Source: Escherichia coli
GTDB taxonomy: Bacteria > Pseudomonadota > Gammaproteobacteria > Enterobacterales > Enterobacteriaceae
Strand: one strand, 5' to 3'
Assembly: GCF_041886205.1 (NCBI RefSeq)
Contig: NZ_CP169029.1
Length of the DNA stretch: 64,000 nucleotides
Shown: piece after piece, positions 4,121-20,695 of the stretch
Numbering within the stretch: the first letter of the stretch is position 1
Layout of the letters: the number at the start of each line of letters is the position of its first letter
Program-made: the position numbers and the translations under genes
Notes under the pieces: model-generated
Databases searched by the model: none
Seen by the model: the letters and a program-made list of their open reading frames with translations, nothing else
Told to the model about the DNA's origin: nothing

Positions 4121-5914
4121 TTAACGCACCTGCACGGAGATCAGCTCGCTACCGTCGTCGCCCAGCACGTGTGTTGAACAGGCGAGGCACGGGTCAAAGC
4201 TGTGCAGAGTACGCAGGATCTCCAGCGGTTGCTCGGGGATCGCCATTTTGGTGTTCATCAGCGCCGCTTCATAAGCGCCAATCTGCCCTTTGGGATCGCG
4301 CGGGCTGGCGTTCCAGGTGGTCGGCACCACGCACTGGTAGAGATCAATCTTGCCATCGCGAATGGCGGCCCAGTGGCCTAACGCCCCGCGCGGCGCTTCG
4401 GTAAAACCGACACCACGGCACTCTGTCGGCCAGGTTGTGGGTTCCCATTTTTCCGTGGAGGCGGTGGCAAGATTGCCGTTTTTCAGGTTAGTCATCAGCT
4501 TGTCGAAGAAATACTGTAACTTACCTGCGGCCCACTGCGCTTCGTGCGCGCGGCACAAAATGCGGCCTAACGTTGACTGGATACCGGAAAGCGGCAGGTT
4601 CAACGCCGACATCATGCGATCGACCGACTCAACGGTCGCAGCATCGCCTTTGTGATAAGCGATTAACGTGCGTGCCAGCGGCCCCACTTCCATCGCGTTA
4701 CCGCGCCAGCGCGGCGCTTTGATCCACGAGTAGCGTTCCTGTTCATTCAGCTGCTGAATGTTGGTATCGCTGCCTTTGACATCGCCGGGGTTGTACCACG
4801 GGTCGGTAATGCCATCGAATGGATGACGCCCGACCTGATCGTTGGGATAACGATACCAGGCGTGATCGACAAACTCCTGCACCTGCTGCGGATCAACCAA
4901 ATCCACTGGCAGCACATTGTTGAAGTCGCCGTTAATCACCGCGCCGCCAGGCATCAGCAGACTTTTCTCTCCAAAGTCGTTGGCAATATCCGGGAATGCG
5001 CCGTAGCTGAGAACGCATTTATCAGAAAGACCAGTGCCGATTTCGCTCCACGGTTTGTTGAACTGACCGATGGCTAAGGCGTCGGGGATCATCACGTTGT
5101 TAATGAAATCCGCCGTGCGGGTAATGATCGACTGCACCAGGTTCAGGCGTTCCATATTGACCGCCCCGACCGCGCCGCTTTCGTCAATGTTAATGGCGCA
5201 AGGCATCCCGCCGACAATCCAGTTTGGATGTGGGTTTTTACCGCCAAAGACCGCGTGGATTTTCACAATTTCACGCTGGAAATCGAGAGCTTCGAGGTAG
5301 TGGGCAAAGCCCATCAGGTTGGCTTCTGGCGGCAACTTGTACTGCGGGTGCCCCCAGTAGCCATTGCGGAAGATCCCCAACTGCCCGCCTTCAACGAATT
5401 TCTTCAGGCGATTTTGTACGTCGAAGAAATAGCCAGGGGATGATTTCGGCCAAGAGGAGAGACTTTGCGCCAGTTCGGAGGTTTTTCGCGGGTCGGCTTT
5501 CAGCGCATCTAACACATCGATCCAGTCCATCCCGGCGAGCTGATAGAAGTGCACCAGGTGATCGTGGCACCAGAGCGTTGCCAGCATAATGTTGCGGATG
5601 ATATTGGCGTTGTCCGGCACTTTAATACCGATGGCATCTTCGATGGCGTAAACCGAAGCCAGGGCGTGTACGCCAGTACAGACGCCGCAGATACGTTCAA
5701 CGAACGCCCACGCATCGCGCGGGTCGCGCCCTTGCAGGATGATCTCCAGCCCGCGAAACATGGTGCCGCAGGAGACGGCATTGGTGATCACATTCTGATC
5801 GTTAATATTCACTTCGCAGCGCATGTGGCCTTCGATGCGCGTAATCGGGTCAACCACCAGGCGGCGTCCGGCATTATTGATGGTGTATCCCTGAGTTTCG
5901 TACTGAGTGCTCAT
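4121..5914 (-). CDS. hyaB: Hydrogenase-1 large subunit HyaB (597 aa, NiFe)
   Basis: Track [33 protein letters not shown]... with the RxCGxC N-terminal and DPCxxC C-terminal NiFe-binding motifs. Confidence 0.95.
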
Positions 5915-7029
5915 GCCTGTTTATCCTCATTGCCTGGCTGATGTTCGGTTTCTGTAGGTTGCTGGTTATGACGTCTGCGCTGGTCAACGGCGCTGGCGAC
6001 TGCGTGCACACCAACAGCCGCTGCCACCACGCCAAGCGCGGTTAAACCGACGGTGTCGGCGGTGGAATGAGTACCCATTTGCGGAATATCGACCACGCGG
6101 CTGTAGAACGAACCGCGATCCCAGAAACCATTTTCCGCACAACCCAGGCAGCCGTGACCAGACTGGATTGGGAAAGAAACGCCATCATTCCAGCGTGTGG
6201 AGGAACAGGCGTTATAGGTGGTAGGCCCTTTGCAGCCCATTTTGTACAGGCAGTAACCTTTGCGGGCAGCGTCATCATCCCAACTCTGGACGAACTCTCC
6301 GGCGTCGAAGTGGGCGCGGCGATAGCATTTATCGTGGATTCGCTGACCATAGAACATCAATGGACGGCCCATTCTGTCGACATCTGGCAAGCGATCAAAG
6401 GTCACCATGTAAGTAATGATGGCGCTCATCACATCCGGGATCGGCGGGCAGCCAGGTACTTTGATAATGGGTTTGTCGGTGATGACTTTGTCGATAGGCG
6501 TTGCCTGCGTCGGATTAGGTCGCGCGGCCTGCACGCAGCCCCAGGACGCGCAGGTTCCCCAGGCGATAATCGCGCTGGCTCCGGCAGCGGCACGTTTGAG
6601 TTTCTCAATAAACGGTCGACCGCTGCTGATACAGAACATCCCCTGCTCGCCCAGCGGCGGATTACCTTCTACTGCGAGGATATATTTGCCATTGTATTGC
6701 GCGATGATGTCTTCAAAGACTTCTTCCGCCTGGGTTCCGGCGGCAGCCATCAAAGTATCGTCGTAATCGAGGGAAATCAGGGAAAGGATGACGTCCTTTG
6801 CCAGTGGGTGAGCGGAGCGGATAAAAGATTCGGTACAGCAGGTGCATTCCAGACCGTGGATCCATACCACCGGAATGCGCGGTTTGTTCTCCAGCGCCCA
6901 GGCAATCTTTGGTGCCATTCCCGCGCCTAATCCCAGCGACGTGGCAGCCAGACTGCAATATTTGAGAAAGCTGCGTCGGGTAACGCCCTGACGCCGCATG
7001 GCCTGGTAAAATGTTTCCTCGTTATTCAT
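5911..7029 (-). CDS. hyaA: Hydrogenase-1 small subunit HyaA (372 aa) with twin-arginine signal peptide
   Basis: Track ORF 5911..7056; the known product starts at [24 protein letters not shown] (ATG at 7029), which carries a Tat motif RRSFLK. Confidence 0.93.
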
Positions 7030-11394: not shown

Positions 11395-12057
11395 ATGAAA
11401 ACCGGCATCGTGACCACCTTGATTGCATTATGTTTGCCGGTATCCGTTTTTGCCACCACGCTGCGGCTTTCAACCGATGTCGATCTTCTGGTACTCGACG
11501 GCAAGAAGGTTTCCAGCTCTCTGCTGCGCGGTGCGGACAGCATTGAACTGGATAATGGACCACATCAGTTAGTGTTTCGCGTTGAGAAGACGATTCATCT
11601 TTCCAATAGTGAAGAGCGGCTGTATATCTCCCCACCGCTGGTGGTCAGTTTTAATACCCAGCTCATCAACCAGGTCAATTTTCGCCTGCCTCGCCTGGAG
11701 AATGAGCGGGAAGCTAACCATTTTGATGCCGCGCCGCGCCTTGAATTGTTGGATGGCGATGCGACGCCGATTCCGGTAAAGCTGGATATTCTCGCCATTA
11801 CCTCAACGGCAAAAACGATTGATTATGAGGTCGAGGTTGAACGCTATAACAAATCCGCGAAACGCGCTTCACTACCGCAATTTGCCACGATGATGGCAGA
11901 TGACAGTACGCTGCTTTCGGGTGTTTCCGAGCTGGATGCTATTCCACCGCAGTCTCAGGTGCTCACAGAACAACGGCTGAAGTATTGGTTTAAACTGGCT
12001 GACCCACAAACGCGCAATACTTTCCTGCAGTGGGCGGAAAAACAACCATCTTCCTGA
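11395..12057 (+). CDS. yccT: Periplasmic protein YccT (220 aa, signal peptide), reported as curli inhibitor CsgI
   Basis: Track [33 protein letters not shown]... with a clear N-terminal signal peptide. Confidence 0.9.
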
Positions 12058-12152
12058 GATTTTTGTGCCTGTGCGCAGGCTTTTTCGGTCTTTATCTTGC
12101 AGCGATAAGTGCTTACAGTAATCTGTAGGAAAGTTAACTACGGATGTACATT

Positions 12153-12611
12153 ATGGAACTGACGACTCGCACTTTACCTGCGCGGAAACATATTGCGCTG
12201 GTGGCACACGATCACTGCAAACAAATGCTGATGAGCTGGGTGGAACGGCATCAACCGTTACTGGAACAACACGTACTGTATGCAACAGGCACTACCGGTA
12301 ACTTGATTTCCCGTGCAACCGGCATGAACGTCAACGCGATGTTGAGTGGCCCAATGGGGGGTGACCAGCAGGTTGGCGCATTGATCTCAGAAGGGAAAAT
12401 TGATGTATTGATTTTCTTCTGGGACCCACTAAATGCCGTGCCGCACGATCCTGACGTGAAAGCCTTGCTGCGTCTGGCGACGGTATGGAACATTCCGGTC
12501 GCCACCAACGTGGCAACGGCAGACTTCATTATCCAGTCGCCGCATTTCAACGACGCGGTCGATATTCTGATCCCCGATTATCAGCGTTATCTCGCGGACC
12601 GTCTGAAGTAA
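12153..12611 (+). CDS. mgsA: Methylglyoxal synthase (152 aa)
   Basis: Track ORF 12144..12611; the known product starts at [23 protein letters not shown] (ATG at 12153). Confidence 0.93.
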
Positions 12612-12616
12612 TATTG

Positions 12617-12640
12617 CACAGGTGGCAAACGCCACCTGTT
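12617..12640. terminator. Bidirectional terminator hairpin between convergent mgsA and helD
   Basis: Stem CAGGTGGC-AAAC-GCCACCTG followed by TTTCTT; abuts the helD stop codon. Confidence 0.65.
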
Positions 12641-12642
12641 TC

Positions 12643-14697
12643 TTACGGTTTTCTCGCCACCGGTACATCCAGATTTTTCAGTATTGCCACAAAGGGAGAG
12701 GGATTCTCTTTGTTAAACAGTGCCCATACCCGATGACGTGCCCGGGTCAGCGCCACGTACATTAACCGCCGTTCTTCAGCGTCCGGGAAATCCTCAACCG
12801 GTGGCAGTAGCGCCTCTTCCATAATCGACTCCCGCGCCGCAGCCGGAAAACCATCACTTCCCTCCTGCAAGCCAACGATGATGACGTAATCCGCCTGTTG
12901 CCCTTTGCTGGCATGAATGGTCATAAAGTCGATTTGCAACTTCGGCCAGCGTGTTGCCGCTTTTTCCAGGCTGGCAGGCCTCATGTGATGGTAACGCGCC
13001 AGGATCAGAATGCGCTCTTCCGGTTTGGCATAACCAGAGAGCTTATCCAGCAAAGCGTCAAGTTGACTCTCATCCAATAACGTGACGGCTTTTTTGTCTC
13101 CATTGGTTAAGCTGTTTAGCGGCTTTTTCAGCTGGCCTGGGTTCTGCTGAATAAACCGGTTTGCCACCTCACCGATACGACTGTTAAAACGGTAAGTCGT
13201 GTCTAAATCACAACGTTCGCCTTCACCAAAGTTTTCATGGAAAGCGGTGGTGAGCGACATTTGCGCACCGCTGAATCGGTAAATCGCCTGCCAGTCATCA
13301 CCAACGGCGAACAACGTCGTCTGACTGTTTTGCTTGCGTAATGCCGCTAACAACGCTGCCCGCTGCGGCGAGATATCCTGAAATTCATCAACCAGAATAT
13401 GCTTCCACGGGCTGATAAAGCGACCTTTCTCCAGAATCACAATCGCCTGATGAATAAGGCCCGAAAAATCGACAGCCTTTTCTGCCTTCAGCGCACCTTT
13501 CCAGGCTTTTAATAACGGGGCCATCAACTTGATACGTTTACTGAACAGATCGCGAATCTCTTCGGGTGCACTGGCAATCATTTCTGCCTGTGCACCACCG
13601 TGCATCCGCATCAGACTTACCCAGCGATCGAGGCGAGAGGCAAGGCGACGCTGTAATTTTTCATCATCCCAGAAGTTACCTTCTGGCACTGACCACTGCA
13701 TTTCTTCCGTCAGCCATTGCCGCCAGCCCTTCTCCTGCGCTTTCTTTTCGCTGCATTGCTTGCGCCACTCAGCAATAAAGAGTTCATGACGGGCAGCGGT
13801 ATCATTTTCCAGTTTGCTGACTATCGGAACTTTTTTGCTGCCCTGCTGAATAATATGCAGCGCCAGCGCATGAAACGTGCGTGCGGTAATGTCTTCGGTA
13901 TGTAGCCGTTCGCGAATACGCTCGTCCATCTCTTCAGCGGCTTTGCGACCAAACGCCAGCAATAAAATTTGCTCAGGAGACGCTTCACCACGCGCCAGCA
14001 ACCAGCCTGCACGGGCCACCAGCACCGACGTTTTTCCGCTTCCTGCACCTGCCAGCACTAACAGAGAATGCTCGCCATTAACGACTGCCCGGGCCTGCGC
14101 CGGATTCAGCGGTGAAGACTCGACCTGGCGGAAAAAATCCGCATACTCGGTAAGCATGGCTTCGGTATACGCCTGGTTATGCTGCAACCGAGCGCTTTCA
14201 ATATCTTTCAACCAGGCCTGACATTTACGCCACGCCTCACGGCAGTTATCGAATTCTTCCAGTCGGTTAACCGGCAACGGCAACGCCGACAAAGCCTGGC
14301 GGATTTGTTGCTGAACGCCAGAGGTTTGCTCACGCGTCAGCCATTTATTTTCTCCAGTGCGCGTGGCAATCAAATCCAGTTGCTGTCGTAAAACACCAGA
14401 CGCAATTTCGCTCATCTCGCCACTCCACCGCCGCCAGTGAGCATCAAGATGATGGTAAAAACGCTGCGTCTCGCCCCATTCGGTGCCGTGCAGACGCACC
14501 ACTTTTTCGTCCGGCAGTACAAATTCCAGCTCGCCCCATACCAGACCGCGCTTACAGTGAATCGCCAGTAATTGATTGAAAGGAATAAGGTATTCGTGGC
14601 GATCGCCGGAGACTTTAATCCCGGCATTGAGGATCACCGCCCGATCGTAAGGGTGCTGTGCCAGACGTTTTCCAAGCGTTGTCGCTTTCAGTTCCAT
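12643..14697 (-). CDS. helD: DNA helicase IV (HelD), 684 aa
   Basis: Track ORF 12643..14790; the known product starts at MELKATTLGKRLAQHPYDRAV (ATG at 14697); UvrD-type Walker A GAGSGKTS is present. Confidence 0.93.
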   Translation of the reverse strand: MELKATTLGKRLAQHPYDRAVILNAGIKVSGDRHEYLIPFNQLLAIHCKRGLVWGELEFVLPDEKVVRLHGTEWGETQRFYHHLDAHWRRWSGEMSEIASGVLRQQLDLIATRTGENKWLTREQTSGVQQQIRQALSALPLPVNRLEEFDNCREAWRKCQAWLKDIESARLQHNQAYTEAMLTEYADFFRQVESSPLNPAQARAVVNGEHSLLVLAGAGSGKTSVLVARAGWLLARGEASPEQILLLAFGRKAAEEMDERIRERLHTEDITARTFHALALHIIQQGSKKVPIVSKLENDTAARHELFIAEWRKQCSEKKAQEKGWRQWLTEEMQWSVPEGNFWDDEKLQRRLASRLDRWVSLMRMHGGAQAEMIASAPEEIRDLFSKRIKLMAPLLKAWKGALKAEKAVDFSGLIHQAIVILEKGRFISPWKHILVDEFQDISPQRAALLAALRKQNSQTTLFAVGDDWQAIYRFSGAQMSLTTAFHENFGEGERCDLDTTYRFNSRIGEVANRFIQQNPGQLKKPLNSLTNGDKKAVTLLDESQLDALLDKLSGYAKPEERILILARYHHMRPASLEKAATRWPKLQIDFMTIHASKGQQADYVIIVGLQEGSDGFPAAARESIMEEALLPPVEDFPDAEERRLMYVALTRARHRVWALFNKENPSPFVAILKNLDVPVARKP

Positions 14698-14819
14698 GAC
14701 TCTGTAGATCCACACGAAATTATTTCTTATCAGTGTAACCGTCAGAGAAAACGTGCTCCAGCCCAAAAAAACGTTACAATTGCCGCCCATTACTGAAAAC
14801 CACAGTAAAGCGAGGTTTT

Positions 14820-15266
14820 ATGCGTACCGTTTTGAACATTCTGAACTTTGTGCTTGGCGGATTTGCCACCACTCTGGGCTGGCTGTTGGCGACTCTGGTC
14901 AGTATTGTGCTGATTTTTACCTTACCGCTGACACGATCCTGCTGGGAGATCACTAAACTGTCTCTGGTACCTTATGGCAATGAAGCTATTCATGTCGATG
15001 AACTGAACCCGGCTGGCAAAAATGTACTGCTGAATACTGGCGGTACGGTATTGAATATTTTCTGGCTGATTTTCTTTGGCTGGTGGTTATGCCTGATGCA
15101 CATTGCAACGGGCATCGCACAATGTATTTCCATCATTGGCATTCCTGTCGGTATTGCGAACTTTAAAATTGCAGCTATTGCACTATGGCCGGTCGGTCGT
15201 CGCGTGGTATCGGTAGAAACAGCGCAAGCTGCGCGTGAAGCCAATGCACGTCGTCGTTTTGAATAA
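14820..15266 (+). CDS. yccF: Inner membrane protein YccF (148 aa, DUF307)
   Basis: Track ORF MRTVLNILNFVLGGFATTLGWLLATLVSIVLIF..., hydrophobic. Confidence 0.9.
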   Translation: MRTVLNILNFVLGGFATTLGWLLATLVSIVLIFTLPLTRSCWEITKLSLVPYGNEAIHVDELNPAGKNVLLNTGGTVLNIFWLIFFGWWLCLMHIATGIAQCISIIGIPVGIANFKIAAIALWPVGRRVVSVETAQAAREANARRRFE

Positions 15267-15275
15267 TCCACTAAT

Positions 15276-17438
15276 ATGGCCTTTATGCTAAGTCCTTTGC
15301 TCAAACGCTATACCTGGAACAGCGCCTGGCTGTATTACGCGCGTATTTTTATTGCGCTTTGTGGAACCACAGCGTTTCCGTGGTGGCTGGGTGATGTAAA
15401 ACTGACGATTCCGCTAACGCTGGGGATGGTGGCAGCGGCGCTGACCGATCTCGATGACCGACTGGCGGGACGTTTGCGTAACCTCATCATTACGCTGTTC
15501 TGCTTTTTTATCGCCTCGGCCTCAGTAGAATTGCTGTTTCCCTGGCCCTGGCTATTTGCGATTGGCTTAACGCTCTCTACCAGCGGCTTCATTTTGCTCG
15601 GCGGTCTGGGTCAACGCTATGCAACAATTGCCTTCGGTGCATTGCTGATCGCCATTTACACTATGTTGGGAACATCACTTTATGAGCACTGGTATCAGCA
15701 GCCGATGTATCTGCTGGCCGGTGCCGTCTGGTACAACGTCCTGACACTTATTGGTCATCTGCTGTTCCCGGTCCGCCCGCTGCAGGACAACCTGGCGCGT
15801 TGCTATGAACAACTGGCGCGTTATCTTGAGCTCAAGTCGCGCATGTTTGATCCTGATATTGAAGATGAAAGCCAGGCACCGCTGTACGATTTGGCTCTCG
15901 CCAACGGACAGCTGATGGCGACATTGAATCAGACGAAACTCTCGCTGCTGACCCGCTTACGTGGCGATCGTGGTCAACGGGGAACGCGTCGCACGCTGCA
16001 TTATTACTTTGTCGCGCAGGATATTCACGAGCGTGCCAGCTCTTCTCATATTCAGTATCAAACATTGCGTGAACATTTTCGCCACAGCGACGTGCTGTTC
16101 CGTTTTCAGCGGCTGATGTCGATGCAGGGCCAGGCGTGCCAGCAACTGTCACGCTGTATTTTGCTGCGTCAGCCTTATCAACATGATCCGCATTTTGAGC
16201 GCGCTTTTACGCATATTGATGCTGCCCTGGAGCGGATGCGCGATAACGGCGCGCCTGCCGATTTACTCAAAACACTAGGATTTTTGCTGAACAATTTACG
16301 CGCCATTGATGCCCAACTGGCAACAATTGAATCAGAACAGGCCCAGGCACTACCCCATAATAATGACGAAAATGAGCTCGCTGATGACAGCCCGCACGGA
16401 TTGAGTGATATCTGGCTGCGTCTTAGCCGTCACTTCACGCCGGAGTCCGCCCTCTTCCGTCATGCGGTTAGAATGTCGCTGGTGTTGTGTTTCGGCTACG
16501 CCATCATTCAGATAACCGGAATGCATCACGGGTATTGGATCTTGCTGACAAGTTTGTTTGTCTGCCAGCCAAACTATAACGCCACGCGCCACCGCCTGAA
16601 GTTAAGGATTATTGGTACGCTGGTAGGTATCGCCATTGGCATTCCTGTGCTGTGGTTTGTACCGTCACTGGAAGGGCAGCTGGTGCTACTGGTTATTACC
16701 GGCGTGCTCTTTTTTGCCTTCCGTAACGTGCAATATGCCCATGCAACGATGTTCATCACACTTTTGGTGCTACTGTGTTTTAACTTGCTGGGTGAAGGTT
16801 TTGAAGTAGCGTTACCTCGCGTAATCGATACGCTGATTGGTTGTGCCATTGCGTGGGCGGCAGTGAGCTACATCTGGCCTGACTGGCGGTTTCGCAATCT
16901 GCCGCGCATGCTCGAACGCGCCACCGAGGCCAACTGTCGGTATCTCGATGCCATACTGGAGCAATACCATCAGGGGCGTGATAACCGTCTGGCGTATCGT
17001 ATTGCCCGCCGCGATGCACACAACCGTGATGCTGAGCTGGCGTCGGTGGTATCAAACATGTCCAGCGAACCGAACGTTACCCCGCAAATTCGAGAGGCCG
17101 CGTTTCGGTTACTGTGCCTTAACCATACGTTTACCAGCTATATCTCAGCCCTCGGTGCTCACCGGGAGCAGTTAACTAATCCTGAAATTCTGGCGTTTCT
17201 TGATGACGCAGTTTGCTATGTTGATGACGCGTTACATCATCAACCTGCTGATGAAAAACGCGTCAATCAGGCATTAGCTGGCCTGAAACAGCGGATGCAG
17301 CAACTTGAACCACGGGCAGACAGCAAAGAACCTCTGGTCGTACAACAAGTTGGGTTATTGATTGCATTACTGCCTGAGATTGGTCGTCTGCAACGCCAGA
17401 TTACTCAAGTTCCGCAGGAAACTCCTGTTTCGGCGTAA
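15276..17438 (+). CDS. yccS: Inner membrane protein YccS (FUSC-like, about 717-720 aa); alternative start at 15285
   Basis: Track ORF MAFMLSPLLKRYTWNSAWLYYARIF...; I recall the reference product starting MLSPLL (ATG 15285). Begins 10 nt after the yccF stop, so likely co-transcribed. Confidence 0.88.
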   Translation: MAFMLSPLLKRYTWNSAWLYYARIFIALCGTTAFPWWLGDVKLTIPLTLGMVAAALTDLDDRLAGRLRNLIITLFCFFIASASVELLFPWPWLFAIGLTLSTSGFILLGGLGQRYATIAFGALLIAIYTMLGTSLYEHWYQQPMYLLAGAVWYNVLTLIGHLLFPVRPLQDNLARCYEQLARYLELKSRMFDPDIEDESQAPLYDLALANGQLMATLNQTKLSLLTRLRGDRGQRGTRRTLHYYFVAQDIHERASSSHIQYQTLREHFRHSDVLFRFQRLMSMQGQACQQLSRCILLRQPYQHDPHFERAFTHIDAALERMRDNGAPADLLKTLGFLLNNLRAIDAQLATIESEQAQALPHNNDENELADDSPHGLSDIWLRLSRHFTPESALFRHAVRMSLVLCFGYAIIQITGMHHGYWILLTSLFVCQPNYNATRHRLKLRIIGTLVGIAIGIPVLWFVPSLEGQLVLLVITGVLFFAFRNVQYAHATMFITLLVLLCFNLLGEGFEVALPRVIDTLIGCAIAWAAVSYIWPDWRFRNLPRMLERATEANCRYLDAILEQYHQGRDNRLAYRIARRDAHNRDAELASVVSNMSSEPNVTPQIREAAFRLLCLNHTFTSYISALGAHREQLTNPEILAFLDDAVCYVDDALHHQPADEKRVNQALAGLKQRMQQLEPRADSKEPLVVQQVGLLIALLPEIGRLQRQITQVPQETPVSA

Positions 17439-18030
17439 GAGAGTCAGCCCATTCTGCTAGCTCCTGGCGGCGTGCCACCGGGAGCGCAGCTTCATGAATC
17501 CCGATAATGGCACCTTCAAGCATAAACAGAATCTTTTCTGTCACCAGACTGTTTTGCTGCCGCAGTCGCAACCAACACATTTTTGCCCCAAGTATACGTA
17601 ACGCCCGTACATCCTTAATCCCCACCTCCCCGAGAATCGCTTCCAGATGAAAAGACATATTGGGCAAATCTTTCAGTCTTTCCCGGGTATTGCGCGTGCT
17701 TTTCTCTTTCAGCGCTGCATCGAGAGAATATTTCGACAGACGCACCAGCTTCAGTTGATTTCGCCATAGACTTTCATCAACCCGATAGTAATTGAGGGTA
17801 ACGGATCGGCCACACTTTTTATATGTCAGCCAGACAGGCGGATGTTTTACACAGTACTGTGCACTTTGCTCACAAGCCCGAAGATACAACTCACCATCAG
17901 AAACCATCGCAAACACCGTGTCGTCAACGGTCAGGCTGTAACTACCAAACAATGATCGGTATTCAATTGTGCCCAACGTTGCCAGGTATTCTTGTGATTT
18001 ATAGATCCGCTTATAGGAGAGGTTTTTCAT
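17401..18030 (-). CDS. sxy: Competence regulator Sxy/TfoX (209 aa)
   Basis: Track ORF MKNLSYKRIYKSQEYLATLGTIEYRSLFGSYSLTVDD... matches Sxy; 3' end overlaps the yccS 3' end by 38 nt. Confidence 0.92.
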   Translation of the reverse strand: MKNLSYKRIYKSQEYLATLGTIEYRSLFGSYSLTVDDTVFAMVSDGELYLRACEQSAQYCVKHPPVWLTYKKCGRSVTLNYYRVDESLWRNQLKLVRLSKYSLDAALKEKSTRNTRERLKDLPNMSFHLEAILGEVGIKDVRALRILGAKMCWLRLRQQNSLVTEKILFMLEGAIIGIHEAALPVARRQELAEWADSLTPKQEFPAELE

Positions 18031-18206
18031 AAAATTCCTTTTAAAATCATAATATAAAAGAATGATTCACATTAACGGATCCGTTAAATACGAAAATAGG
18101 CAACTTCTTCTTTAGGGGCAAGATTAATTTATGTTTTCCCGTCACCAACGACAAAATTTGCGAGGCTCTTTCCGAAAATAGGGTTGATCTTTGTCGTCAC
18201 TGGATG

Positions 18207-18226
18207 TACTGTACATCCATACAGTA
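18207..18226 (+). promoter_or_regulatory. LexA operator (SOS box) of sulA: TACTGTACATCCATACAGTA
   Basis: CTGT-N8-ACAG palindrome immediately upstream of sulA; matches the well-known sulA SOS box. Confidence 0.9.
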
Positions 18227-18248
18227 ACTCACAGGGGCTGGATTGATT

Positions 18249-18758
18249 ATGTACACTTCAGGCTATGCACATCGTTCTTCGTCGTTCTCATCCGCAGCAA
18301 GTAAAATTGCGCGTGTCTCTACGGAAAACACTACAGCCGGGCTTATCAGTGAAGTTGTCTATCGCGAAGATCAGCCCATGATGACGCAACTTCTACTGTT
18401 GCCATTGTTACAGCAACTCGGTCAGCAATCGCGCTGGCAACTCTGGTTAACACCGCAACAAAAACTGAGTCGGGAATGGGTTCAGGCATCTGGGCTACCC
18501 TTAACGAAAGTAATGCAGATTAGCCAGCTCTCCCCTTGCCACACCGTGGAGTCAATGGTTCGCGCTTTACGCACGGGCAATTACAGTGTGGTGATCGGTT
18601 GGTTGGCAGATGATTTGACTGAAGAAGAGCATGCTGAACTTGTTGATGCGGCAAATGAAGGTAACGCTATGGGGTTTATTATGCGTCCGGTAAGCGCATC
18701 CTCTCACGCCACGAGACAACTTTCCGGGCTAAAAATTCACTCTAATTTGTATCATTAA
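18249..18758 (+). CDS. sulA: SOS cell-division inhibitor SulA (169 aa)
   Basis: Track ORF 18243..18758; the known product starts at [23 protein letters not shown] (ATG at 18249). Confidence 0.93.
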
Positions 18759-18981
18759 GTAAATTTAGGATTAATCCTGGAACTTTTTTTGTCGCCCAGC
18801 CAATGCTTTCAGTCGTGACTAATTTTCCTTGCGGAGGCTTGTCTGAAGCGGTTTCCGCGATTTTCTTCTGTAAATTGTCGCTGACAAAAAAGATTAAACA
18901 TACCTTATACAAGACTTTTTTTTCATATGCCTGACGGAGTTCACACTTGTAAGTTTTCAACTACGTTGTAGACTTTACATC

Positions 18982-19114
18982 GCCAGGGGTGCTCGGCATA
19001 AGCCGAAGATATCGGTAGAGTTAATATTGAGCAGATCCCCCGGTGAAGGATTTAACCGTGTTATCTCGTTGGAGATATTCATGGCGTATTTTGGATGATA
19101 ACGAGGCGCAAAAA
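18982..19114 (+). promoter_or_regulatory. ompA 133-nt 5' untranslated leader (target of sRNA MicA and Hfq)
   Basis: Sequence GCCAGGGGTGCTCGGCATAAGCCGAAGATATCGG... to the ATG matches the known long ompA leader. The track ORF starting at 19043 is an in-frame upstream extension inside this leader, not a coding start. Confidence 0.8.
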
Positions 19115-20167
19115 ATGAAAAAGACAGCTATCGCGATTGCAGTGGCACTGGCTGGTTTCGCTACCGTAGCGCAGGCCGCTCCGAAAGATAACACCTGGTA
19201 CACTGGTGCTAAACTGGGCTGGTCCCAGTACCATGACACTGGTTTTATTCCTAACAATGGTCCGACCCACGAAAACCAACTGGGTGCAGGTGCTTTTGGT
19301 GGTTACCAGGTTAACCCGTATGTTGGTTTTGAAATGGGTTACGACTGGTTAGGTCGTATGCCGTACAAAGGCGACAACATCAACGGTGCATACAAAGCTC
19401 AGGGCGTTCAACTGACCGCTAAACTGGGTTACCCAATCACTGACGATCTGGACGTATACACTCGTCTGGGTGGTATGGTATGGCGTGCAGACACCAAGGC
19501 TAACGTACCTGGTGGCGCATCCTTTAAAGACCACGACACTGGCGTTTCTCCGGTTTTCGCAGGTGGTGTTGAGTACGCGATCACTCCTGAAATCGCTACC
19601 CGTCTGGAATACCAGTGGACCAACAACATCGGTGACGCAAACACCATCGGTACTCGTCCGGACAACGGTCTGCTGAGCCTGGGTGTTTCCTACCGTTTCG
19701 GTCAGGGCGAAGCAGCTCCGGTAGTTGCTCCGGCTCCAGCTCCGGCACCGGAAGTACAGACCAAGCACTTCACTCTGAAGTCTGACGTTCTGTTCAACTT
19801 CAACAAAGCAACCCTGAAACCGGAAGGTCAGGCTGCTCTGGATCAGCTGTACAGCCAGCTGAGCAACCTGGATCCGAAAGACGGTTCCGTAGTTGTTCTG
19901 GGTTACACTGACCGCATCGGTTCTGACGCTTACAACCAGGGTCTGTCCGAGCGCCGTGCTCAGTCTGTTGTTGATTACCTGATCTCCAAAGGTATCCCGG
20001 CAGACAAGATCTCCGCACGTGGTATGGGCGAATCCAACCCGGTTACTGGCAACACCTGTGACAACGTGAAACAGCGTGCTGCACTGATAGACTGCCTGGC
20101 TCCGGATCGTCGCGTAGAGATCGAAGTTAAAGGCATCAAAGACGTTGTAACTCAGCCGCAGGCTTAA
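19115..20167 (+). CDS. ompA: Outer membrane protein A precursor (350 aa here; non-K-12 loop allele)
   Basis: Starts at [30 protein letters not shown]-terminal OmpA domain present. Loop segments read [10 protein letters not shown] and [15 protein letters not shown], unlike the K-12 form I recall. Confidence 0.95.
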
Positions 20168-20182
20168 GTTCTCGTCTGGTAG

Positions 20183-20211
20183 AAAAACCCCGCAGCTGCG
20201 GGGTTTTTTTT
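20183..20211. terminator. Bidirectional intrinsic terminator between convergent ompA and matP
   Basis: A-tract, stem CCCCGCAG / CTGCGGGG, then T8. Confidence 0.85.
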
Positions 20212-20242
20212 CGCCTTTAGTAAATTGAACTGACTTCGTCAG

Positions 20243-20695
20243 TTATTCCTTACCCAGCAATGCCTGCAGATCATGCTTCAAAGAAGACATTTTATTCGCG
20301 TATTTCTCTTTGTTTTCCGCATCTTCAATCAGCTGAACAATCGTTTCAGAAAGCGTTTTACCGCGACGCTGCGCAAGACCAGCCAGACGTTGCCAGACAA
20401 TAAATTCCAGATCGATCGATTTTTTGCGCGTATGCTGGTGTTCCGCATTAAAATGGCGCTTCCGTCTGGCCCGAATGGTTTGCTTCATGCGATTGACCAG
20501 TTCCGGATTCATATGCTTGTCAATCCAGCCATTTACCAGCACGGGTTCATTTTCCAGCGAGAGCAACACATCGACGGCTTCCTGGGCGGCACTGGCTTCT
20601 ATGTAACGGGTGATTAACTCCCCTTCGCGATGCTTCTTCACCAGATACTTCCATTTCCAACCGCTTTCAAGATTTTCAAGTTGTTGATATTTCAT
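20243..20695 (-). CDS. matP: Ter macrodomain organiser MatP (150 aa)
   Basis: Track [38 protein letters not shown]... matches MatP. Confidence 0.93.

Follow-up and report, generated by a model that had tools for sequence, protein, structure and literature searches.

The yccF-yccS operon of Escherichia coli: a candidate fused, asymmetric ALMT-like double unit and an apparently separable small membrane protein

What do yccF and yccS, two adjacent Escherichia coli genes for membrane proteins, do, and does their shared transcript mean that their products work together? We addressed this question at positions 14,820 to 17,438 of a 64,000-nucleotide stretch of E. coli DNA (NCBI RefSeq assembly GCF_041886205.1, contig NZ_CP169029.1; hereafter the window), where a first reading made by a model from the sequence alone (the sequence-only reading) had singled out the two genes as a co-transcribed pair. 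The evidence tips modestly towards a two-gene core operon in which YccS is a fused, asymmetric pseudo-dimer of the ALMT/FUSC type for organic-anion efflux, and in which YccF is most likely not an obligatory subunit. We regard as established the structure of the genes, their family membership, the internal duplication of YccS, its ALMT-like fold and motifs, and the phyletic independence of yccF and yccS. Both open reading frames (ORFs) lie on the plus strand at the positions first proposed, and genome annotation and the NCBIfam models agree on the gene identities:

yccF coding sequence (CDS), 14820-15266, plus strand: 148 amino acids (aa); two tandem DUF307/YccF domains and a basic C-terminal amphipathic helix; inner-membrane protein.
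yccS CDS, 15285-17438, plus strand: 717 aa from the conserved ATG; inner-membrane protein of TIGR01666 with two tandem FUSC/ALMT-like units.

YccS can be placed clearly at the family level: it belongs to the FUSC/ALMT channel superfamily. It matched TIGR01666 (YccS family putative transporter) over aa 8-706 of 717 with 1258 bits against a cut-off of 470.75, and TIGR01667 (YccS/YhfK subfamily) with 1159 bits, above the curated threshold. Three Pfam models also scored above their cut-offs, namely PF12805 (385.9 bits, 1e-115), PF13515 (100.7 bits, 8.5e-29) and PF04632 (36.6 bits, 2.9e-9), and a full scan of 1.84 billion representative proteins returned 5543 relatives. By hydropathy scan, YccS has one hydrophobic block at about aa 38-166 and another at about aa 393-534, and a long polar stretch separates the two, in agreement with the N-terminal and central hydrophobic blocks and the soluble region that the sequence-only reading had described. 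The protein divides into two units, each with its own membrane and cytoplasmic part:

YccS unit 1 (diverged), 15321-16325, plus strand: six transmembrane (TM) helices at aa 13-160, then a cytoplasmic helical bundle at aa 164-347; PF12805 at aa 66-345.
YccS unit 2 (canonical, with ALMT-type motifs), 16449-17408, plus strand: six TM helices at aa 389-529, then six cytoplasmic helices at aa 535-708; PF13515 at aa 405-525.

Aligned with hhalign, the N-terminal and C-terminal halves of YccS matched each other with a probability of 93.8% (E 1.7e-7) over 187 columns spanning the membrane domains, and we therefore read the protein as an internal duplication; pairwise BLASTP between the halves detected no similarity, and it took profile-profile comparison to reveal the duplication. 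The AlphaFold2 model of YccS (predicted local distance difference test score, pLDDT, 94.3; predicted template modelling score, pTM, 0.93) contains twice a set of six TM helices followed by about six cytoplasmic helices. The domain search and structure prediction that had been proposed as a check have thus made family and fold clear. The accompanying statement that no function is established for either protein holds to the extent that the literature searched contains no paper giving one to YccF or YccS, and needs amending for the family-level placement of YccS.

Unit architecture and fold both agree with those of solved ALMT structures. When the YccS model was compared with the PDB by Foldseek, the nine best matches were all plant ALMT anion channels (QUAC1, ALMT9, ALMT1; probability 1.0), and each alignment comprised about 365-388 columns, equivalent to one ALMT protomer per YccS half. 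A single-sequence search of the PDB with YccS gave a marginal match to QUAC1 only (E 0.19); with the YccS family profile the matches became significant (QUAC1 3.7e-10, ALMT9 1.5e-7, ALMT1 2.7e-7), all of them via the C-terminal half. Residue conservation, determined in an alignment of 100 diverse full-length YccS family members, points to the same half: the invariant residues R396, W418, T434, R441, G444 and G448 all lie there. Moreover, W418, T422, T434, R441, G444-T445, R512 and P532-x-W534 align with three features of ALMTs, which are the TM2-TM3 motif (W..MT...GAT...LNRG.GT), the arginine of TM6 and, after TM6, the PxW motif; at the last of these, P532 is 94% and W534 98% conserved. The two arginines are encoded as follows:

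R441 codon, 16605-16607, plus strand: TM3 of unit 2; aligns with the arginine of ALMT 'LNRG.GT'; 100% conserved.
R512 codon, 16818-16820, plus strand: TM6 of unit 2; aligns with the ALMT TM6 arginine; 99% conserved.

ALMTs coordinate malate via conserved TM3 and TM6 arginines (bioRxiv 10.64898/2026.03.10.710584). Unit 2 of YccS has both, whereas unit 1 has R63 alone (arginine in 80% and lysine in 11% of the 100 members, together 91%) and no TM6 arginine, the equivalent residue being Y142 in E. coli and leucine in 58 of the 100 relatives.

These features suggest how YccS might work. The Mycobacterium tuberculosis protein Rv2571c, a single-unit FUSC protein, has an ALMT-like structure and an essential TM6 arginine and is predicted to form a homodimer with a central pore; its expression leads to export of alpha-ketoglutarate (bioRxiv 10.64898/2026.03.10.710584). 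The single chain of YccS would reproduce the homodimer by which plant ALMTs, and apparently also Rv2571c, form a central anion pore. Such a pore would be asymmetric, because the C-terminal unit retains both pore arginines and the N-terminal unit only the one in TM3. Most likely, YccS would let an organic anion leave the cell by facilitated efflux, in the manner of a channel or a uniporter; the most plausible anion is a carboxylate of metabolism, and the two PhoU-like six-helix cytoplasmic bundles could be the regulatory part that gates the efflux. Pore formation, anion selectivity, direction of flux and gating are thus what we infer for YccS. No membrane-fusion or outer-membrane-factor gene adjoins yccS in E. 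coli or at six distant loci, which suggests that YccS may work without a pump partner. YccF, in turn, would be a separate small membrane protein that shares the transcript in most Enterobacterales.

Several points weigh against this reading. Similarity to ALMTs points to a fold and a pore motif, not to a substrate, and the literature searched contains no transport assay, phenotype or substrate for YccS or its paralogue YhfK. Other members of the FUSC family, such as AaeB, have been described as efflux pumps and not as channels. The model of YccS is that of a monomer and does not speak to higher oligomers. Finally, the tight linkage and co-transcription of the two genes in 79 of 80 Enterobacterales species would allow a YccF-YccS interaction specific to that lineage, to which we assign a low probability.

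The alternative that fares best takes YccS to be an energy-coupled efflux pump of the ArAE type (AaeB, MdtO, FusC-like) for aromatic or xenobiotic acids, not a passive metabolite channel. It can draw on the match to PF04632, on a weak NCBIfam match to MdtO, on the historical annotation 'putative efflux (PET) family', and on the presence of a yccS knockout in a table of genes affecting cationic dye accumulation, in which no interpretation is given (PMC6704527). However, the MdtO match amounts to 23 bits against an equivalog cut-off of 821, and the sole solved relatives of YccS are channels, whose pore arginines are the most conserved residues of the YccS family. Nor does any locus examined carry an adjoining gene for a membrane-fusion protein or outer-membrane factor: the E. 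coli neighbours are helD, yccF and sxy, and the six distant loci have no HlyD-type neighbour. The MdtO score and the lack of an adjoining fusion-protein gene rule out a component of an AaeB/MdtO-type tripartite pump, and an energy-coupled pump of this kind in general appears unlikely.

Whether the anion channel that we favour would need YccF depends on what YccF is and on how closely the two genes are tied. YccF matched PF03733 in two stretches (about aa 4-54 and 77-127; 97.2 bits, E 8.5e-28, above the cut-off) and the NCBIfam equivalog NF008739 with 298 bits against a cut-off of 213. It is largely hydrophobic by hydropathy scan, as the description of a small hydrophobic protein had implied, and its AlphaFold2 model (pLDDT 89.2) has helices at aa 2-30, 32-49, 69-103, 108-122 and 132-147. 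An invariant series N, G, P, P, G recurs 73 residues apart in YccF and its relatives from five phyla, in addition to H94 and K116. In the model, two DUF307 helical hairpins make YccF a small membrane protein of four helices; no solved structural relative was found. In [Eubacterium] eligens, a 57-aa protein (6001-6174 of locus L092) consists of a single YccF domain, and its existence suggests that the two-domain YccF is a fused dimer of hairpins. A YccF-GFP (green fluorescent protein) fusion behaves as a YidC-dependent membrane protein (PMC3225971). The literature searched contains no functional study of YccF, the 240 matches listed include no domain fusion, and the loci examined outside Enterobacterales have no conserved gene neighbour.

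The co-transcription proposed by the sequence-only reading stands. The genes lie on the same strand with a gap of 9-18 nt, in which a scan found no terminator-like or promoter-like site; that they form a single transcript rests on published strand-specific RNA sequencing (RNA-Seq), which describes a 'yccF-yccS operon' and includes a 'yccFS' transcription-unit plot (PMC4161252). The length of the gap depends on the start chosen for yccS. The first ATG, at 15276, is the choice of the NCBI Prokaryotic Genome Annotation Pipeline (PGAP) and gives a gene at 15276-17438 that encodes 720 aa and begins 9 nt after yccF, while the ATG at 15285 gives 717 aa and a gap of 18 nt; the earlier figures of 10 nt and 717 aa are approximately right but mix the two choices. 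We compared the yccF stop and yccS start over 79 Enterobacterales species. The start conserved across the order is the equivalent of ATG 15285, whereas the upstream ATG 15276 occurs only in Escherichia and some Citrobacter. In all loci with a placeable ATG start (53 of 79) the gap is at most 45 nt, and most genera carry an AGGA/GGAC Shine-Dalgarno-like motif within a gap of 16-25 nt, a motif that is missing from the E. coli gap sequence TAATCCACTAATATGGCCTTTATG.

Intercistronic gap, 15267-15284, plus strand: no terminator; without an AGGA Shine-Dalgarno-like motif in E. coli.

From this comparison, the AGGA motif appears to have been lost, and the in-frame ATG 15276 gained, in E. coli. Given that its 18-nt gap contains no Shine-Dalgarno motif, yccS is probably translated in E. 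coli by coupling to yccF.

A second alternative makes YccF a dedicated accessory subunit of YccS, acting in gating, assembly or stability, in which case the Enterobacterales operon would code for a single channel of two components. In its favour, most of the 79 species have the two genes side by side in the same orientation, separated by 9-25 nt; in E. coli they are co-transcribed, and the missing Shine-Dalgarno motif suggests translational coupling. The two are also under similar purifying selection, and other FUSC-family operons begin with a gene for a small membrane protein, as aaeXAB does with aaeX. However, the adjacency, with yccF directly upstream of yccS in 79 of 80 Enterobacterales species, carries little information within the order because the whole block mgsA-helD-yccF-yccS-sxy-sulA is syntenic there. 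The sole exception is Superficieibacter electus, where a yccF remnant of 23 codons (MRTVLNMLTFVL...) stands before an intact yccS; this reads as a natural internal deletion of yccF.

yccF remnant MRTVLNMLTFVLAASLSVLVQDR*, 4925-4996 of locus L032 (NZ_PQGD01000006.1): between helD and the intact yccS.

In the same locus, about 2.3 kb are inserted between yccS and sxy. Moellerella and Proteus mirabilis keep mgsA-helD-yccS-sxy without yccF, with helD and yccS about 100-250 bp apart, and two complete Proteus chromosomes contain no YccF at a tblastn E of 1 or less.

Beyond these genera the two families part further. The complete chromosomes of Acinetobacter baumannii (n=3) and Neisseria gonorrhoeae (n=2) encode YccS-family proteins and no YccF, and no YccF was found within 4 kb of yccS in Acinetobacter, Ca. 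Schmidhempelia and Corallincola. Seven Vibrio replicons and Aeromonas caviae carry both genes, 29 kb to about 1.4 Mb apart. Conversely, none of 14 YccF loci outside Enterobacterales, from five phyla (Rhizobium, three Vibrio, Aeromonas, Parabacteroides, Phocaeicola, three Enterococcus, Eubacterium, Latilactobacillus, Nonomuraea and Tsukamurella), has a FUSC-family ORF nearby, and their neighbours are otherwise unrelated. A search for related loci with an alignment of 18 sequences had returned Enterobacterales only; this wider context was taken from the contigs encoding the proteins and from complete chromosomes in PLSDB. Linkage or co-occurrence of the kind expected from a conserved functional gene pair was thus not found beyond the syntenic range, and the solo, unlinked and remnant cases in this small sample lead us to conclude that the yccF and yccS families have independent histories. 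The comparison of genomes across species that the sequence-only reading had suggested therefore leaves its pair standing as an operon, linked in most Enterobacterales, and separates the families elsewhere. Judged from these gene orders, co-transcription in E. coli is real but would not be evidence of a shared mechanism; the genes appear to be joined in an operon within a single bacterial order rather than to make up a conserved functional couple, and an accessory-subunit role for YccF is distinctly improbable.

One could go further and imagine YccS as a single-chain asymmetric ALMT-type channel that vents a central-metabolism carboxylate (e.g., alpha-ketoglutarate, malate, succinate or glutamate) in overflow or stress, with YccF recruited as a gating or assembly partner in most Enterobacterales. 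This is a long shot; if true, it would provide the first function for DUF307 and for the YccS/YhfK family in E. coli. We consider it very improbable indeed that YccS is a membrane sensor or regulator that signals via its two PhoU-like bundles and uses its TM part to sense a ligand, since ALMT channels normally have this same helical bundle as their cytosolic domain, the matches of the bundles are generic, and the conserved positions cluster in the TM pore motifs rather than in the bundles.

Returning to the operon and its control, we analyzed the genes on either side of yccF-yccS and the sequence upstream of it. The divergence from helD and the convergence with sxy that the sequence-only reading had noted are borne out by the coordinates and by the PGAP annotation of a reference record of 100% identity, which has helD upstream on the opposite strand, yccF and yccS 9 nt apart, and sxy convergent with and overlapping the 3′ end of yccS:

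helD, 12643-14697, minus strand: divergent from yccF.
sxy, 17401-18030, minus strand: convergent with yccS.
yccS/sxy 3′ CDS overlap, 17401-17438: convergent, 38 bp.
Candidate -10 hexamer TACAAT of the yccFS promoter, 14775-14780, plus strand: within the conserved block GCTCCAG..AAAAA.CGTTACAAT.
Shine-Dalgarno-like GAGG, 14812-14815, plus strand: 4 nt upstream of the yccF ATG; read from the sequence.
Published FNR site AGTAATTGATTGAAAGGAATAAGG from chromatin immunoprecipitation (ChIP) and electrophoretic mobility shift assay (EMSA), assigned to 'yccF/helD', 14567-14590: within the 5′ end of the helD CDS; placed by sequence match.

The helD-yccF spacer is 122 bp long, and yccFS is probably transcribed from a weak promoter within it. 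The block GCTCCAG..AAAAA.CGTTACAAT, located 40-50 bp upstream of yccF, is conserved in Enterobacteriaceae and Erwiniaceae loci, and its TACAAT is a candidate -10 region. A strict sigma-70 scan of the upstream region returned no full promoter match, in keeping with the low activity measured for a yccF::lacZ fusion (175-235 units vs. a background of 30-45; PMC1802558). FNR was bound at the 'yccF/helD' site, yet had no effect on yccF or helD fusions (PMC1802558). Although published as intergenic, this site lies 230 bp upstream of yccF and about 107-130 bp inside the helD CDS. In enterotoxigenic E. coli H10407, a CRP ChIP peak falls inside yccS and has no recognisable motif (PMC4287617). Control of yccF by LexA as an SOS gene can be rejected: a table of putative SOS genes includes yccF, but the gene was uninduced in that study (PMC11002266), and there is no LexA box upstream of it. 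The only good LexA box in the window is the near-consensus TACTGTACATCCATACAGTA at 18207-18226 upstream of sulA, the known sulA SOS operator.

At the other end of the operon, the transcripts of yccS and sxy must each terminate within the other gene, given the 38-bp convergent overlap of the two CDSs, and a 2025 survey lists sxy-yccS among the convergent overlapping transcript pairs, or 'excludons', supported by RNA-Seq (PMC12288877). The length of the overlap differs between genera, and the Klebsiella locus (L079) has none. On the helD side, the mechanically called helD ORF reaches into the spacer for 31 codons beyond the annotated start, MELKATT (14698-14790, minus strand); the extension most likely stems from ORF calling and does not point to a longer HelD. 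A scan of 12000-20500 with Rfam gave no family above threshold. Sub-threshold matches to Leu_leader, RsmY and istR on both strands at 20163-20251, between ompA and matP (20-27 bits vs. gathering scores of 45-57), most likely reflect a bidirectional terminator hairpin and none of those RNAs.

The locus is conserved core E. coli and not a novel insertion, as had been expected. A 3-kb query over yccF-yccS matched 5425 of 5426 complete E. coli genomes at 80% coverage or more, and every matching E. coli record listed carries annotation of yccF, yccS, helD and sxy under the match. The ratio of nonsynonymous to synonymous substitution rates (dN/dS) against Escherichia albertii is 0.031 for yccF and 0.026 for yccS; E. 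albertii served as the reference because dS is saturated against Salmonella, Klebsiella and Serratia, making those comparisons unusable. Such strong purifying selection indicates that both are real, constrained genes and not chance ORFs.

Outside Enterobacterales, two kinds of gene beside yccF were considered as possible conserved neighbours. An M23/DD-metalloendopeptidase gene adjoins it in Vibrio sp. HDW18 (5621-6873 of locus L086), where a bactofilin gene then follows the M23 gene, and in Parabacteroides distasonis (4699-5997 of locus L088, with a 3-nt gap). V. cholerae, V. campbellii, Phocaeicola and nine other loci lack this arrangement, which is probably a coincidence. In Enterococcus gilvus (6669-6923 of locus L089) and E. 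raffinosus (4693-4947 of locus L100), yccF faces a short, convergent gene of the TfoX/Sxy family about 300 bp downstream, an arrangement that recalls the yccF...sxy order of E. coli. It is limited to one Enterococcus lineage and is absent in E. faecium and Latilactobacillus. The yccF neighbours at the other loci (other Vibrio including V. cholerae, Phocaeicola, E. faecium, Latilactobacillus, Tsukamurella, Nonomuraea, Aeromonas and Rhizobium) are unrelated. About 2 kb from yccF, the Vibrio sp. HDW18 locus also has a DUF2057 gene (2144-2773), of the family of E. coli csgI/yccT, which in the window lies just beyond mgsA; it may be a trace of an older synteny around yccF that did not include yccS.

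Everything at this locus was already catalogued: the genes are named, both proteins have curated hidden Markov models, Pfam groups FUSC with ALMT, and the operon appears in published transcriptomes. What our analysis adds is a structural reading of YccS, based on its model, as two ALMT-like units fused asymmetrically, in which the pore arginines can be identified, and the indication from gene content that yccF is evolutionarily separable from yccS. The two remain among the E. coli genes still without a function, and the outcome is a sharper testable hypothesis rather than a discovery, for a locus that stays annotated, ubiquitous and ordinary. YccS can be treated as a possible ALMT-like anion channel, fused and asymmetric, in which the pore arginines to mutate would be R441 and R512; the 2026 preprint on the mycobacterial relative suggests looking for carboxylate export and drug-tolerance phenotypes (bioRxiv 10.64898/2026.03.10.710584). 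The comparative data, in turn, advise against treating YccF and YccS as one system; the two can be studied and deleted separately.

Among known systems, E. coli YhfK has the same architecture as YccS and belongs to the same family (TIGR01667), and in the literature searched it is likewise uncharacterised. YhfK of Pantoea is said to be described in a patent as a glutamate exporter. The yhfK locus differs from that of yccS in that it adjoins crp, with no yccF-like gene reported there (PMC3776858). The ArAE/FUSC systems AaeB, MdtO and FusC share a Pfam clan with YccS, which PF04632 matches, and act together with a membrane-fusion protein, in many cases also with an outer-membrane factor. Unlike them, YccS has neither partner gene nearby and falls below the MdtO equivalog cut-off. 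The DUF307 family (PF03733) has E. coli YccF as its namesake, in which the domain occurs twice, both times as a helical hairpin carrying the motif IIGIP.G....K. Rv2571c ('AKGC') resembles YccS in being a bacterial FUSC protein that is ALMT-like by structure, retains the TM6 arginine and has been proposed as an alpha-ketoglutarate channel; it differs in being a single unit of about 355 aa that is predicted to form a homodimer and lacks the TM3 arginine, whereas in YccS two units are fused and unit 2 carries both arginines. The plant ALMTs (AtALMT1, AtALMT9 and GmALMT12/QUAC1; PDB 7vq3, 8hiw and 7w6k) have, like each YccS unit, six TM helices and a six-helix cytosolic domain, and share with YccS the W..T of TM2, the 'R-G-T' of TM3, the TM6 arginine, the PxW after TM6 and two TM bundles placed side by side. 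At an identity of 12-16%, the bacterial YccS differs from them in its diverged N-terminal unit without the TM6 arginine, and, whereas ALMTs are homodimers of chains of about 400-600 aa, YccS carries both units in one chain of 717 aa.

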